A DNA stretch of 64,000 nucleotides, from the NCBI GenBank assembly GCA_965238075.1, contig OZ250173.1, forward strand, positions 1-64,000. Reading direction: 5' to 3'. This document shows, piece by piece, positions 57,330 through 64,000 of the stretch (position 1 is the stretch's first letter; each line of letters begins with the position of its first letter). The notes beneath the pieces are model-generated. The model had not been told where the DNA came from and made no database searches. It saw only the letters and a list, made by a program, of their open reading frames with translations. Source of the DNA: Candidatus Entotheonellaceae bacterium (GTDB lineage Bacteria > Tectomicrobia > Entotheonellia > Entotheonellales > Entotheonellaceae). The position numbers and the translations under genes are program-made.

Positions 57330-59120
57330 TTACGGGAGCGCGAACGTGACGAGCGCTGCGGACGACTGATAGTTGACCATCTGGTCCCCGAACAGGGCCA
57401 GCACGGCGCCGGCAACGTAGGTACCATGGCCAACTACCATGGATACGTACTGCTTGCCGTCGGCGTCGTAGGAAATGATACCGCCGTTGTGGCCGGTACC
57501 GTTGTTGAAACGCCACAGGACGTCGCCGGTTTCGGCGTCCAACGCCTCTGCCCAACCGTCCATGGTGCCGTTAAACACCAGGCCGCTAGCGGTGGACATC
57601 AGCGCTGAGTGCGGAATGATGTCATAACGCTTGTCCCAGGTCAGCTCGGCCGTCACCGGGTTACGCGCCGTGATGCGTCCGTGCGCCTTTTCGCCAGGCG
57701 GATGCGTGCCCACCCATTCGGCAGCCATGAAGACCTGCGCGAACGGCTCGGTCACGCGGGTCTCGGTACCGAAGGAGATGGTGGTGCCGCCGCCCTCGGG
57801 GGCAACCGTCAGCCACATGCACCATTCGTTGACCACGCGATAGTGCAACCCGGTCTGCGGGTTGTACGTGCCGGCGTTCCAGCTATGGCCGCCATCGATA
57901 GCCGGGCAAACCAACGTGCGCTCGCCAGGCTTGGGCCACAGCATGTTCTCAAACTCGCCCGTTTCCAGATTGAAACCGCTCGTCCAATTTTGGCTCTTCT
58001 GGGCCGGGTACACGTTCACGGGCTTGCCGCTCTTGGGCTCGTGCACGTGGTTGAAACCGTTCTTGCCAGGGTGGAGAAGCAGGGTCTGGCCGTTGTCTTC
58101 GAACAGGACGTACTCGCCAGGAGAGGCGTCGTAGTCGTAGGGATCGCTCGGCGCTTCCTGAAAGTACCAATTCAGCTTGCCGGTATCCAGGTCCAAGGCG
58201 ATCGTGGAGGAGGTGTACAGGTTGTCACCCGGGCGCCAGCCGTTGGTGTTCGGGTCGCGGCACTGGTCACCGCAATAGTCGTAGTCAGGATCCGGATTGC
58301 TCGTGCCCATCAGGATCTGGTTGTTGGCGTAATCAACGGTGCCGGGCTGCCAGGAGCCGCCGCCGCCGTACTTCCACGAGTCACCGCCCCAGGTGGCGAG
58401 GGCTGCGGGGTCGCCGCGGCCCGTGGTGTAGAAGGTCCACTTCAAATCGCCATTCTGAGGATTGAGACCGAAGATGCGCCCCTCAATCGGATACTCGCCG
58501 CCGTTCTGACCGATGACGACCAGGTCGGAATTGACGAAGGTGGCGGAGCCGCTGAAGCCCGCGGTGTCCTTTTGAGAGTTGACCAGCTTGCGGTCCCACA
58601 TGATCTCGGCGGTGTTCTCGTCTATCGCCACCACGCGGCCATCGGCCAGGCCCATGTAGATACGACCGTCGCCAATGGAGGTGCCGCGGGAGTGAGCGAA
58701 AACGGAGCGCGCCACAACGGCCTCGTCCATCTCCGGTGTGAAGGCCCAGATGCGCTCACCCGTCGCGCCGTTGAGCTTCCAGATCGTGGACGGGTTGGCG
58801 GGGAGGTAAACATTGCCGCCGATGGCCAACGGCGTGCTGTGCAAGCCGCCATTACCGCTGCCGGTGGCGCCGCCGGGCAGGAAGATCCACGCCGGGCGGA
58901 GTTGGGACACGTTGTCCTTGGTGATCTGATCCAGCGGGCTGTGCCGCCAAGCCTTGTCGGTGGTGCGATGGTACGCGCACCAGTTCTCAGCCGGGCAGTT
59001 CCGGATGCTGTCAGCGCTCGTGCTGCCGTGGCTCATCGCCATCGCAGCCGGAGCCACAAACAGGCCGGCAATCGCCAGCAACACCAATGCCTTACCAAGT
59101 CTTTTCATTCCCTTGCACAT
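57330..59120 (-). CDS. PQQ-dependent dehydrogenase (type I ADH/MDH-like beta-propeller), atypical
   Basis: Signal peptide, HSPLDQIT..NV..L, GGEY, GGGSW, GTSNP, RPGDNLY, DPYDYD, KNGF, CP..GG..W, GKQYV. Confidence 0.9.
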   Translation of the reverse strand: MCKGMKRLGKALVLLAIAGLFVAPAAMAMSHGSTSADSIRNCPAENWCAYHRTTDKAWRHSPLDQITKDNVSQLRPAWIFLPGGATGSGNGGLHSTPLAIGGNVYLPANPSTIWKLNGATGERIWAFTPEMDEAVVARSVFAHSRGTSIGDGRIYMGLADGRVVAIDENTAEIMWDRKLVNSQKDTAGFSGSATFVNSDLVVIGQNGGEYPIEGRIFGLNPQNGDLKWTFYTTGRGDPAALATWGGDSWKYGGGGSWQPGTVDYANNQILMGTSNPDPDYDYCGDQCRDPNTNGWRPGDNLYTSSTIALDLDTGKLNWYFQEAPSDPYDYDASPGEYVLFEDNGQTLLLHPGKNGFNHVHEPKSGKPVNVYPAQKSQNWTSGFNLETGEFENMLWPKPGERTLVCPAIDGGHSWNAGTYNPQTGLHYRVVNEWCMWLTVAPEGGGTTISFGTETRVTEPFAQVFMAAEWVGTHPPGEKAHGRITARNPVTAELTWDKRYDIIPHSALMSTASGLVFNGTMDGWAEALDAETGDVLWRFNNGTGHNGGIISYDADGKQYVSMVVGHGTYVAGAVLALFGDQMVNYQSSAALVTFALP

Positions 59121-59550: not shown

Positions 59551-60798
59551 ATGAAAAGTGCAAAGATTATCTACGACATCATTTGGATGACAATCGCGAT
59601 TCTACTCGCCTCCTTCCTCACGGTCGTCTTTGATCTGCATGAGTGGCTTATTCAGTACACGCGCCCCTTCGAATCCTGGGAGCTCGATGAGACTCCCTTC
59701 TTCCTCTTTTTTGTGGCCCTGTCCTGTGCTTGGTTTGCCTATCGACGCTGCCGAGAATTGATCACGGAGATCGCCGAGCGCAGGCAGATCCAGAAGGCGC
59801 TCACGGACAGTGAAACCCGCTACCGTACCCTGGTAGAAGCCTCGGCTCAGGGCATTTATATATACCAGGAAGGCACCATACGGTTTGCAAACCGGGCGCT
59901 GGGCCGGCTGTTTGGCTGTGAAAGCGCCGAAGCGTTAATCGGGGAGCACGTGGAACAGCTCTACTCGCCTCATGAAGAGGCGCGTCTGACAGCCTACAAC
60001 ACTGCCGCTTTGGCGGGCCACGCCGAGCCGCGGCGTTACGAATGGCACGGCGTGCATCGGGACGGCGCCATGCTCTGGCTCGAAAGTCTTACGCTGCGCA
60101 TCACGTGGGACGGCGTCCCGGCCCTGATGGTTACGGTGCTGGACATTACGGAGCGTCGAGGCCAGGAACAGGAACGACGCAAGATCGCTTACGACATCCA
60201 CGACGGCATCGCGCAGTTGATGGTGGGCGCCCAGCACCATCTGGAGGCGTTCGATCACCTCTGGCGCGATGACGCTTCACTGGCCGAGGATCAGTTGGGC
60301 CGCGGCCGTGCTAAGCTCCGCCAGGCGATCGTCGAAACACGACGGCTGATGACTCAACTGCGCCCGGTCAGCCTCGAAACCCTGGGTTTGATTCCTGCCG
60401 TGCAGCAGTATCTGAACGAATTGGGCAAAGACGCTGGCTGGGAAATCGACTATCACGCTGAGGTCGCCGCCCTGAATCTCTCCCCGGACGGGGAAACCGC
60501 CCTTTTCCGCATTCTGCAAGAGGCGCTGACGAATGCCTGGAAGCATGCGCAGACGCCAAGGGTGCGTCTCAGCCTGCACACCGAAGGCGAAAAAGACGAT
60601 CTGCTGGTTGTATGTGTCCAAGATTGGGGAATAGGTTTCGAGCCCGCCCGGATCCACTCCGATGCCCAAGGGATCGGCCTTATGGGCATGCGTGAGCGCT
60701 CTCGACAACTGGGTGGGGTATGCAGCATCGAGAGTCGCCCCGGCCGCGGCACGACTGTGCGGCTGCGGATTCCCCTGCAGCATGGAGAAGCCACATGA
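59551..60798 (+). CDS. PAS-domain sensor histidine kinase (HisKA_3, NarX/UhpB type)
   Basis: Two TM helices, PAS (SETRYRTLVE..DITERR), IAYDIHDGIAQ, QEALTNAWKHA, DWGIGF, GLMGMRER. Confidence 0.92.
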   Translation: MKSAKIIYDIIWMTIAILLASFLTVVFDLHEWLIQYTRPFESWELDETPFFLFFVALSCAWFAYRRCRELITEIAERRQIQKALTDSETRYRTLVEASAQGIYIYQEGTIRFANRALGRLFGCESAEALIGEHVEQLYSPHEEARLTAYNTAALAGHAEPRRYEWHGVHRDGAMLWLESLTLRITWDGVPALMVTVLDITERRGQEQERRKIAYDIHDGIAQLMVGAQHHLEAFDHLWRDDASLAEDQLGRGRAKLRQAIVETRRLMTQLRPVSLETLGLIPAVQQYLNELGKDAGWEIDYHAEVAALNLSPDGETALFRILQEALTNAWKHAQTPRVRLSLHTEGEKDDLLVVCVQDWGIGFEPARIHSDAQGIGLMGMRERSRQLGGVCSIESRPGRGTTVRLRIPLQHGEAT

Positions 60799-61460
60799 GT
60801 CTGCGGGAACAGCGCCGCATTCAGGTCGTGATAGCCGACGATCACCCGGTGGTGCGGGAAGGCTTGCGGAGCGTCCTTTTGACGGCTGCGGACATGGAGG
60901 TTATCGGCGAGGCCGGTACGGGAGCGGAGGCGGTGGCGCAAGCGCAGGCGCTGCAGCCGGAGGTCATGCTGCTCGACATCCGCATGCCCGATGGGAATGG
61001 CCTGGCAGTCCTGAATCAGATCAAGGCGGTGTCGCCCGATACCAGCGTCATCATGGTGACCATGCACGACAATCCTGATTACATTTCCCGCGCCGTTGCA
61101 GCTGGTGCCGCCGGGTACGTTCTCAAGGAGGCAAATCGCCACGATCTCCTCACGGCAATTCGCACGGTGCTCAATCCATCGGCGGCGCCCACCCCTGTCC
61201 TGTTGAGCAAATCTCAACGGGTGCCGTTCAACGCCGCACAGACGGCGGCGCCGTCCGGCCCCACGTCGCTTAGCTCGGTCGAACGCGAATTGCTGTTGCT
61301 GCTAGCGGATGGGCTCAGCAATAAAGAAATCAGCTTGCAGTTGCGCTGCAGCTTGGGCACCGTCAAGAATTATCTCCAGCATATTTTCACCACCCTTCAG
61401 GTTTCAGACCGCACCCGCGCAGTTGTAGAAGCTATCCGCCTCGGGCTCATTGATCCGTGA
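60795..61460 (+). CDS. NarL/LuxR-family response regulator
   Basis: ADDHPVVREG, DIRMP, GYVLK, GLSNKEI..TVKN; ATGA coupling. Confidence 0.93.
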   Translation: MSLREQRRIQVVIADDHPVVREGLRSVLLTAADMEVIGEAGTGAEAVAQAQALQPEVMLLDIRMPDGNGLAVLNQIKAVSPDTSVIMVTMHDNPDYISRAVAAGAAGYVLKEANRHDLLTAIRTVLNPSAAPTPVLLSKSQRVPFNAAQTAAPSGPTSLSSVERELLLLLADGLSNKEISLQLRCSLGTVKNYLQHIFTTLQVSDRTRAVVEAIRLGLIDP

Positions 61461-61810: not shown

Positions 61811-62563
61811 ATGAGCGAACGTTTGACTGACATACGGGATGCGAACTTCGGGTACGGCCGCACAAGTGTCTTGCAAGGCGTGCAATTCTCCCTTGCGGCG
61901 GGAGATTTCGTCGGCCTTGTCGGGCCTAACGGCGCGGGCAAGACCACCTTGTTGCGCGGCTTGTTGGGCCTGATCAAACCGCAGCGTGGAGAGAGGCGGA
62001 TCAACCCCCCTGACGGCGCTGCCGACGTGGTATTCGGCTATGTGCCGCAGGAAAAGGCGGTTGATCCGTTTTTCCCGTTGTCGGTGCTCGACGTGGTGCT
62101 CATGGGGCGCTACCGGCTGCTCGGGCCGGGCCGGCGTCCGACGCTGGTGGATCGGCGTGCGGCACTGGCGTGTCTCGGCCACGTGCAACTTGAGCATCTT
62201 GCTGACGCGTCCTTTCAGGATTTGTCAGGCGGTCAGAAACAGCGGGTCCTTCTGGCCCGTGCTTTGGCCACCGAGCCGCACGTTCTGGTGCTCGATGAAC
62301 CAACCAGCGCCATGGACCTGGCAGCTGAAAAACGGCTCATGGCCGTGATTAGCGAGCAGCACGAGGCCCGAGGGCTGACGGTCATGCTGGCAACACACGA
62401 CTTGAACCTGATCGGTCGCTACGCTTCCAGAATTGCCCTTGTCGCGGGGGGGCGGGTTATCAGCGGCTCGCCAACGGAACTTTTGGAGACCCGGCAACTC
62501 AGTGAGGTATACGGCGTCGAGGTGCAGGTGCACGAAGTCCAGGGTCGGCGGTTAATCGTCTGA
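61811..62563 (+). CDS. Metal ABC transporter ATP-binding subunit (ZnuC/MntA-like)
   Basis: GPNGAGKTT, GYVPQ, FPLSV.DVVLMG, LSGGQKQR, LDEPT, THDL. Confidence 0.92.
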   Translation: MSERLTDIRDANFGYGRTSVLQGVQFSLAAGDFVGLVGPNGAGKTTLLRGLLGLIKPQRGERRINPPDGAADVVFGYVPQEKAVDPFFPLSVLDVVLMGRYRLLGPGRRPTLVDRRAALACLGHVQLEHLADASFQDLSGGQKQRVLLARALATEPHVLVLDEPTSAMDLAAEKRLMAVISEQHEARGLTVMLATHDLNLIGRYASRIALVAGGRVISGSPTELLETRQLSEVYGVEVQVHEVQGRRLIV

Positions 62564-62583: not shown

Positions 62584-64000
62584 ATGTGGGAAATGCTTTC
62601 CTACCCCTTCTTCCAATCGGCGCTCATCGCCGGCACCTTGTCCGCGGCCATGTGTGCTCTGGTGGGGGTGTACGTCCTGCTCAAGCGCATCGTGTTCGTC
62701 GGCATTGCGCTGGCCCAGCTTGCTTCACTGGGTGTGGCGGTGGCTTTGCTTATCGACGTGCACCCGATGATCATGGCCCTGGTGACGACCTTGACGGGTG
62801 TGGCCTGTTTTGCATTGACCCGTACCGGCCAGCGCGTTCCGCAAGAGGGCGTGATCGGTGCCAGCTACGTGATGGCGGCGGCCCTCGGCATCATTTGCGT
62901 GGCCAAGAATCCCGTGGGCGAGGCGCGCAATCTGAAGGTGCTGTTCGGCAACATCCTGTCCGTTCACACGGGGGAGATGGTGGCCCTCGCCGTGCTTTTG
63001 GCGGTGCTGGCCATCGTACACGTGGTTTTCTACAAGGAGTTCCTGTTCGTATCTTTCGACCCGGAAACCGCCCAGGCTCAGGGAATCAACGTCCGCGGGT
63101 GGGACCTTCTGCTGTACCTCACCATCGGTCTGGCGATTGCGTTTTCCATTCACTCAATGGGAGTGTTACTCGTGTTTGCACTACTGCTTGTTCCAGCCAT
63201 GACGGCGCGCCTTGTGGCGCACAGGATGATGGCTTTGTTTGCCCTGGCCATTGCTTTCGGGGTTGTCGCAGTTCCGCTCGGTCTGTATCTGGCTGTGCGC
63301 ATCGACCTGCCGACCGGCACCGCGGTGGCCGGCACCTGCGTGGTGATGCTGTTGGCCGTCCTGACGGGTCGCGGTTTGTATCGCAGTGTTGGACGCTTGG
63401 CGTCGGGGGCGGCGGTGCTGATGCTGGTATTTAGCTTGGCAATACCGGGTTCCGTTTCCGCCCAGGAGACGGATGTTGAACAGCGTCTGCAGGAGTTGCA
63501 GCAGGAAATACAAGAGCTTCGTAACAGCCTGCGCGGCCAGCAGTTGCGGCTGCCGGGCGGCTTGCTGCTCAACCCGGAAATGCGCGTCGAAGGCAACTTC
63601 CAAGGCAATCGAGGCTGGGGCTTGCAACGAAACGCCGAGTACGAGGGTTTCCCCAACAACCGCTTCAATATCCGTGAGGTCGAACTCGGCTTCCGGGCCT
63701 CGGTGGACCCCTTCGCGGTTCTGGAAACGGTTATCAGCGCCCAGCGTCTGGTGGAAATCGAATTTGAGGACGGGGAAGAGGAATTGCCCCGCGAACTCGA
63801 TTCCGAAGTGGAATTCGAGGAGGCGCACCTGACCTTTGCGCGGCTGCCGCTGCGCTTGCGCGGCAAGCTGGGTCTCATGCGCACCAGCTTCGGTGAGTAC
63901 AACGACGATGACCCCGATGAGTTCCCGCAAATCGACCCGCCAAACGTTATCGTGCATCTCTATGGCGAGGAAGGCGAGGGCTGGAAGGAACCCGGCCTCA
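62584..64000 (+). CDS. Metal ABC permease (ZnuB/ABC-3) fused in frame to an outer-membrane receptor/porin-like domain (runs off the window)
   Basis: My translation from ATG 62584 has no stop to the window end (absent from the ORF track): LVGVYVLLKRIVF, LFGNIL, SFDPETA, GVLLVFALL, DLPTG; then GSVSA|QETD, a coiled coil, LNPEM, FNIREVELGFRASVDPF, EEAHLT, FGEYN. Confidence 0.85.
   Translation, partial: MWEMLSYPFFQSALIAGTLSAAMCALVGVYVLLKRIVFVGIALAQLASLGVAVALLIDVHPMIMALVTTLTGVACFALTRTGQRVPQEGVIGASYVMAAALGIICVAKNPVGEARNLKVLFGNILSVHTGEMVALAVLLAVLAIVHVVFYKEFLFVSFDPETAQAQGINVRGWDLLLYLTIGLAIAFSIHSMGVLLVFALLLVPAMTARLVAHRMMALFALAIAFGVVAVPLGLYLAVRIDLPTGTAVAGTCVVMLLAVLTGRGLYRSVGRLASGAAVLMLVFSLAIPGSVSAQETDVEQRLQELQQEIQELRNSLRGQQLRLPGGLLLNPEMRVEGNFQGNRGWGLQRNAEYEGFPNNRFNIREVELGFRASVDPFAVLETVISAQRLVEIEFEDGEEELPRELDSEVEFEEAHLTFARLPLRLRGKLGLMRTSFGEYNDDDPDEFPQIDPPNVIVHLYGEEGEGWKEPGL

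Follow-up and report, generated by a model that had tools for sequence, protein, structure and literature searches.

An ABC-3 permease joined in frame to a 16-strand porin domain through a putative internal signal peptide in Candidatus Entotheonellaceae and its relatives

How can a single open frame encode both an inner-membrane permease and an outer-membrane barrel? This question is raised by a 64,000-nucleotide stretch of DNA from a Candidatus Entotheonellaceae bacterium (the window), which comprises positions 1-64000 of a single 3.35-Mb contig (OZ250173.1, assembly GCA_965238075.1). An earlier description made from the letters of the window (the sequence-only reading) had pointed to one stop-free frame, missed by the track of open reading frames (ORFs), that joins a ZnuB-like permease at about 62584-63370 to a signal-like segment, a coiled coil and the beta-barrel motifs of an outer-membrane, receptor-like domain. 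It took this for either a polyprotein split by signal peptidase I or an envelope-spanning transporter. We found that the frame runs on the forward strand from an ATG at 62584 to the end of the window, a span of 472 amino acids, and that the ORF track omitted it solely because it exits the window. With downstream letters taken from the same genome, the fused gene continues to a stop at 64711-64713 (genome positions) and its full product is 709 amino acids long.

The in-frame join is real and conserved. Using residues 290-709 as the query, we recovered 105 proteins at E ≤0.001, and 85 of these are fused, which we defined as having at least 200 permease residues in frame ahead of the junction. 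Their identity to the query ranges from 99 to 33%, their sources include Methylomirabilales and Rokubacteria, and databases label them simply as permeases. All five same-genus genomes hold permease, junction and barrel in one open frame of 752-776 amino acids. A stop or frameshift near the junction, an objection that the sequence-only reading had raised against itself, was looked for in public data; contigs from four runs (three studies, two of the runs being RNA libraries) span 63370-63470 with no inserted or deleted letters, and their three junction substitutions are all missense, with no stops. Junction length differences among homologues likewise preserve the frame. Elsewhere the constituent parts are found as separate genes, which that reading had given as their normal state. 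In Ca. Entotheonella TSY1/palauensis genomes, which belong to another genus of the same family, the permease stops after 285 amino acids; the barrel is encoded separately, opening with an ATG and an N-terminal signal peptide of its own, and znuA comes next. The spacing between permease and porin genes is about 3.5 kb in a TSY1-type record (L019 1720-7218) and about 400 nucleotides in a palauensis-type record (L020 4835-7218). The gene order in distant phyla is barrel, znuA, ATPase, permease. The separate state of the parts in these genomes is what might suggest a mistake in sequencing or assembly, or a stop lost recently in pseudogene fashion, confined to this one assembly; this explanation is refuted by the 85 fused homologues, the five same-genus genomes, the gap-free contigs and the frame-keeping length differences, and we consider it scarcely credible.

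The permease half is a member of a well-defined fold family. The domain (residues 1-262, 62584..63369, forward strand) matches PF00950, the ATP-binding cassette (ABC) family ABC-3, over residues 6-259 (E 3.5e-48; 164.8 bits, with the cut-off at 20.1; positions 1-254 of the 258 in the profile), and the nearest solved sequences are PsaC 7kyo (2.7e-20) and ZnuB 9oko (1.6e-19), in agreement with the ZnuB-like label given earlier. NCBIfam equivalog scores were all below cut-off: AztB 132 against 280, the anchored-repeat permease 120 against 297, SloB 95 against 460 and ZnuB 77 against 284. AlphaFold2 places helices at 8-34, 39-57, 61-78, 87-108, 114-121, 129-148, 150-165, 170-192, 194-211, 215-240 and 244-267, a predicted layout of nine transmembrane (TM) helices, to which are added a gate helix in the periplasm and a coupling helix in the cytoplasm. 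Excerpts of PMC8346216 and PMC12236471 describe nine TM helices for PsaC and ZnuB, with the periplasmic helix after TM4 and the cytoplasmic coupling helix after TM5. K/R-rich loops, read from the sequence, alternate along the permease; counted from this alternation and from the coupling helix, the chain is predicted to be cytoplasmic after TM9. The same excerpts (PMC8346216, PMC12236471) locate a channel Asp/His metal pair in TM2, D46/H50 in PsaC and D36/H40 in ZnuB. Ile41/Gln45 (window 62704-62718) align with this pair here. None of the 24 barrel-linked ABC-3 permeases with coverage of the stretch (loci L015-L049) has it, and their His position holds Gln or Glu, which suggests a separate subfamily that may differ in substrate or mechanism. 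On this alignment, the missing pair lowers the claim of a Zn/Mn transporter of the characterised type, not that of membership of the ABC-3 fold family.

Between the two halves lies a segment with the layout of a Sec signal peptide. An Arg-rich cytoplasmic loop (R263, R267 and R271; 63370..63396, forward strand, as are the features that follow) would be its n-region, the 16 uncharged residues L272-I287 (63397..63444), read from the sequence and aligned homologues, its hydrophobic h-region, and P-G-S-V-S-A (P288-A293; 63445..63462) its c-region. A signal peptidase I cut is predicted at 63462/63463, before Q294. The signal-like segment and site proposed by the sequence-only reading thus survive, in that the A293 codon ends at 63462 and the rule-based Sec signal features are all kept. 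Behind the site follow a periplasmic coiled-coil stalk and short linker (residues 294-325, 63463..63558), where AlphaFold2 puts a helix at 297-319 in line with the coiled coil described before; the model is unconfident at the junction itself, with a predicted local distance difference test score (pLDDT) below 50 at 270-277 and 283-299. Neither a lipobox Cys nor a twin-arginine motif was found on reading the junction segment.

To ask how far this layout is conserved, we counted junction columns over the 84 fused homologues that have a residue at position -1; one further fused sequence is gapped there. The n-region has three K/R in 59/84, at least two in 74/84 and no acidic residue in 76/84. Signal peptidase I sites follow the von Heijne rule of small residues at -1 and -3. 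Position -1 is Ala in 83 homologues and Gly in one, and position -3 is small or aliphatic in all 84 (A 48, V 29, T 3, G 2, L 1, S 1); 13 different residues occur at -2, and +1 is Gln in 78/84. Every one of the 84 has Pro or Gly at -8 to -4, represented here by P288-G289, which breaks the helix after the core, and the median length of the uncharged stretch, polar c-region included, is 22 residues. Moreover, the N-terminal signal peptides of the unfused Ca. Entotheonella TSY1/palauensis relatives align with the internal segment column by column, the Ala-Gln site too. Because positions -1 and -3 are constrained, -2 is free and these N-terminal signal peptides align, there is good evidence in the alignments that the junction segment descends from a cleavable signal peptide, and equally good evidence that its cleavage site is still under selection. 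Where it departs from a classical signal peptide is in position, beginning at residue 263 after nine TM helices. The stalk is common to standalone relatives, and the distance from cut site to barrel motif is 26-131 amino acids in fused forms (median 36) and 12-110 in standalone forms. The genome encodes both signal peptidase I (122 bits) and BamA (655 bits).

The C-terminal domain is a porin. It comprises residues 326-709, of which the first part lies in the window (63559..64000) and the remainder extends to genome position 64710, ahead of the stop. AlphaFold2 gave 16 strands between residues 332 and 702 in the full protein, and again 16 strands for the barrel domain alone (93 aligned sequences, pLDDT 83, predicted template modelling score 0.85). 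The best structural match is OprP 2o4v_A (Z 27.6, root-mean-square deviation 3.3 over 311 of 390 residues, identity 13%; Foldseek E 2.2e-12), with further porin matches to VhChiP (Z 23.9), DcaP (23.5), PorB (22.6) and OmpM1 (20.7). The top 11 structural matches are all 16-strand porins, at Z 27.6-20.7, and TonB-dependent receptors reach Z ≤12. A TonB-type receptor was considered as a candidate and rejected: the PF00593 score of 18 bits falls short of the cut-off of 27, no plug family matches, and the barrel has 16 strands instead of 22. Of the earlier description, then, the barrel stands and the term receptor-like does not. No Pfam or NCBIfam family covers the C-terminal ~440 residues, and Porin_O_P matches neither this domain nor any of 16 aligned rows; a barrel-family profile run against solved sequences gave no match with E <0.05, and a protein atlas returned only unnamed or loosely named beta-barrel clusters.

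As judged from the model strands, the periplasmic turns are of 2-9 residues and the outer loops are long. The longest and best-conserved is porin loop L3 (residues 434-467, 34 residues; 63883..63984, forward strand), in which E438, N440, D441, D443, E446, P448, D451, P453 and N454 are near-invariant. Its net charge of -10 equals the median over 104 homologues, and that of the whole barrel is -37. L3 narrows the pore in classical porins, and this analogy suggests that the barrel may be a cation-selective channel. The protein ends in Phe (F709), which is found in at least 90% of 93 rows, with F or Y in 16/16 rows of a smaller alignment; a C-terminal aromatic residue is a signal to the beta-barrel assembly machinery (BAM). 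The site of loop L5 (residues 544-562 here) has long Asp runs, of tens of residues, in Entotheonella-type standalone porins (P0065, P0066, P0072), and in the fused protein it is a short acidic loop with two Cys.

The porin belongs to a large family whose genes accompany znuA-type genes. A family profile built from standalone and fused barrels retrieved 4773 cluster representatives at E ≤0.001, 1246 of them at E ≤1e-30; fused length with a C-terminal match was seen in four of the best 150 representatives. Ten standalone members were scanned for annotation: one just reaches Porin_O_P (27.3 bits, cut-off 20.9; profile positions 20-127) and one just reaches BBP2, five have no Pfam match (E up to 0.001), and nine have no NCBIfam match, the tenth having two that fall far under their cut-offs. 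A pattern scan of one genome per species, which detects only members carrying one conserved motif, gave 35 loci in phyla and groups that include Desulfobacterota, Planctomycetota, Acidobacteriota, Binatia, Nitrospirota, Lentisphaerota and a Variovorax. In 33 of these loci the barrel gene is directly followed, on its own strand, by the start of a gene for a ZnuA homologue; the other two hit a contig edge. This linkage suggests that the porin works with a znuA-type importer. We did not find a permease-porin fusion or a znuA-linked porin described in the literature covered, which took in few subscription journals.

The same linkage holds at the locus under study, where the remaining components of an importer flank the fused gene. 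An ABC transporter ATPase gene of ZnuC/AztA type (61811..62563, forward strand, 250 amino acids; PF00005 E 6.5e-27) ends 20 nucleotides upstream; it matches NCBIfam AztA (3.8e-52) and the anchored-repeat ABC ATPase (4e-54), both under their cut-offs. A ZnuA-family binding-protein gene (genome 64726-65688, just beyond the window; PF01297, E 5.7e-37) starts 13 nucleotides after the fused gene. Closest to the binding protein is Synechocystis ZnuA. Where the latter and distant barrel-linked homologues have their first His, the protein's own lineage and the Entotheonella-type genomes have Glu (E-D-P-H versus Q-E-P-E-L); the second and third His positions are retained. We take these residues to be ligands. 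Our best guess for the substrate is a divalent metal cation. The fused gene is the sole ABC-3 permease match in the genome (one match; genome 93% complete), so that whatever the substrate, its import is without a backup transporter of the ABC-3 family there.

Together, these parts would form a four-part metal importer of ATPase, permease, porin and ZnuA-type binding protein. In the scheme that we propose, Sec/YidC would insert the nine permease helices in the inner membrane and leave the chain cytoplasmic. The three Arg, the 16 hydrophobic residues and P-G-S-V-S-A would then act as an internal Sec signal and thread the remaining chain into the periplasm, where signal peptidase I would cut after A293, the permease keeping a tenth helix. 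The released coiled coil and barrel, of about 416 residues, would be inserted into the outer membrane by the BAM machinery, and the strongly acidic, probably cation-selective 16-strand porin would admit metal for the ABC pump and its ZnuA-type partner. Both membranes would probably be supplied in this way by one transcript and one polypeptide, and an advantage of the fusion could be that both parts are made together, in equal numbers and in the same place. Cleavage, outer-membrane location, substrate and selectivity are the elements of this scheme that we infer.

We had two proposals of the sequence-only reading to weigh, together with others. We favour, with confidence somewhat above even, a polyprotein that signal peptidase I cuts and whose porin moves on to the outer membrane to serve there as the importer's entry channel, and the comparative evidence favours this reading over the envelope-spanning option. 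Several points weigh against it. Cleavage is called from rules and conservation. Should the two halves function separately, it would be unexplained why selection keeps them fused, and one lineage, the Entotheonella type, split them without obvious loss. In the literature covered we found no bacterial case of a polytopic protein, inserted co-translationally, that sets free an outer-membrane protein, and the RNA-library contigs over the gene are not counted as proof of transcription. The substrate assignment, in turn, is weakened by Ile41/Gln45 in place of the Asp/His pair and by Glu in place of the first His ligand of the binding protein. A useful covalent link would readily explain why the in-frame join was kept over deep divergence, and a periplasmic coiled coil and Pro-rich linker do lie between the two parts. 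The hydrophobic segment might accordingly stay uncut as a tenth TM helix, with the coiled coil and linker holding the porin covalently to the permease in a fixed route across the envelope. However, the -3/-1 pattern, the free -2 and the preceding Pro/Gly in 84/84 fit a cleavage site and would be unneeded for a plain membrane helix; the hydrophobic core has only 16 residues, the median of 22 for the uncharged stretch being reached with a polar c-region; and the stalk, whose length is uncalibrated across the fused forms, also occurs in standalone ones. The median 36 residues would span at most ~12-13 nm fully extended, which is under the width of the periplasm in model bacteria. Symmetry is a further difficulty, since ZnuB is a two-fold dimer in an excerpt of PMC12236471 and the closest porin folds are trimeric. 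We think such a tether unlikely. A single uncut chain of nine or ten inner-membrane helices and an outer-membrane barrel, folded by BAM while still anchored in the inner membrane, would be quite unlikely.

The porin might instead be made mainly from a start codon inside the junction, with a signal peptide of its own, the join to the permease being a tolerated by-product of a lost permease stop. Initiation at the TTG at 63376 would put M-Y-R-S-V-G-R ahead of the hydrophobic core, which together look like an ordinary signal peptide, and unfused relatives start their porin gene at this alignment point. Yet that Leu codon is TTG in some same-genus genomes and CTG in others, and the next Leu codon is TTG, CTG or GTG, so that no start-capable codon is conserved; distant fused forms have no equivalent. 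The permease would moreover still be read through into the barrel, which would leave the fate of the fusion product to be explained. We hold internal initiation to be very unlikely.

How the fused and unfused forms are related was addressed with a quick maximum-likelihood tree of the barrel part (100 rows, with 5 of the 105 left out for short barrels), rooted on four distant standalone forms. Fused forms fill a 96-row clade. Seven unfused Entotheonella-type rows make one clade (support of 100 in the Shimodaira-Hasegawa-like approximate likelihood ratio test, SH-aLRT) that lies within the fused rows (SH-aLRT 99). A tree constrained to keep the other 88 rows in one clade was worse by 55.7 log-likelihood units (approximately unbiased test, p 0.034); the group was picked after seeing the tree, and the test gives a hint only of secondary fission. 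One old fusion followed by one later split appears the likeliest history on this tree.

The surroundings of the operon are particular to the genus. No Rfam family, riboswitch included, and no operator-like palindrome was found in the 350 nucleotides upstream of the ATPase gene; the sole inverted repeat there follows the regulator gene. A histidine kinase and a LuxR-type regulator lie at 59551-61460. In its own genus only, the transporter operon sits inside a pyrroloquinoline quinone (PQQ) alcohol-dehydrogenase island (window 57330-59120 on the reverse strand, and L014 10776-19511, where L014 9727 corresponds to genome 64726). Besides two PQQ dehydrogenases (TIGR03075, 348 and 704 bits), the island encodes a YncE-like propeller, a cytochrome c with an SBP_bac_3 domain fused to it, and a protein whose match to TIGR03863, the PQQ-system binding protein, is under cut-off (E 7e-40). 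Supply of lanthanide or calcium to the adjacent PQQ dehydrogenases was considered and not adopted, the adjacency being confined to the own genus (loci L016-L018) and found in none of L019-L049. A 388-amino-acid open frame runs antisense to the porin domain (window 63181-63999 and L001 1682-2848, both on the reverse strand); it is probably not a gene, such frames being common in DNA this GC-rich.

Set beside known systems, the locus resembles the ZnuABC, PsaBCA and MntABC importers in its ABC-3 domain with nine helices, its upstream ATPase and its downstream ZnuA-family binding protein, and differs from them in some 450 extra residues (signal, coiled coil and porin) and in having no channel Asp/His pair. 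OprP/OprO, the phosphate-selective, trimeric porins of Pseudomonas (Porin_O_P, PF07396), share the 16 strands and long L3; OprP has an arginine ladder where the loops here are acidic, and the protein described here has an N-terminal coiled coil and no Porin_O_P match. DcaP of Acinetobacter baumannii (6eus) and OmpM1 of Veillonella parvula (8bym) are also 16-strand barrels, to which the structural similarity was noted above, and both carry a periplasmic coiled-coil stalk ahead of the barrel. Unlike the fused protein, they are encoded by standalone genes with ordinary N-terminal signal peptides, and we know of no link between either and an ABC importer. For the fusion itself, the closest precedent is FbcH, the cytochrome b/c1 precursor of Bradyrhizobium japonicum, which is reported to be cut at an internal signal sequence. 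Fusion of cytochrome b to c1 in Bradyrhizobiaceae is described in an excerpt of PMC4986455. FbcH has the same order, a polytopic inner-membrane protein and then an exported protein in frame; its two products both stay at the inner membrane in one complex, whereas the second product here would go to the outer membrane. For outer-membrane metal entry, Bradyrhizobium has the manganese channel MnoP. Neisseria has ZnuD, a TonB-dependent zinc receptor (PMC2895646, in excerpt). ZnuD and MnoP do the same pathway job that we propose for the porin, supplying an inner-membrane importer with metal from beyond the outer membrane; ZnuD does so as a 22-strand gated receptor with a plug, and neither feature was found here.

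Outer-membrane proteins are normally separate precursors that are exported post-translationally, and the insertion of polytopic inner-membrane proteins is co-translational. A gene found in nature, and conserved, that made both from one chain would be a test case for how Sec handles a start-transfer signal after nine helices. It would also be one for whether signal peptidase I cuts internal sites in bacteria beyond cytochrome b/c1, and for the route by which a membrane-released barrel precursor would reach BAM. Beyond the fusion, a large and mostly unannotated porin family travels with znuA-type importers in many phyla, and this family is a candidate answer to how metal crosses the outer membrane in bacteria without TonB-type zinc receptors.

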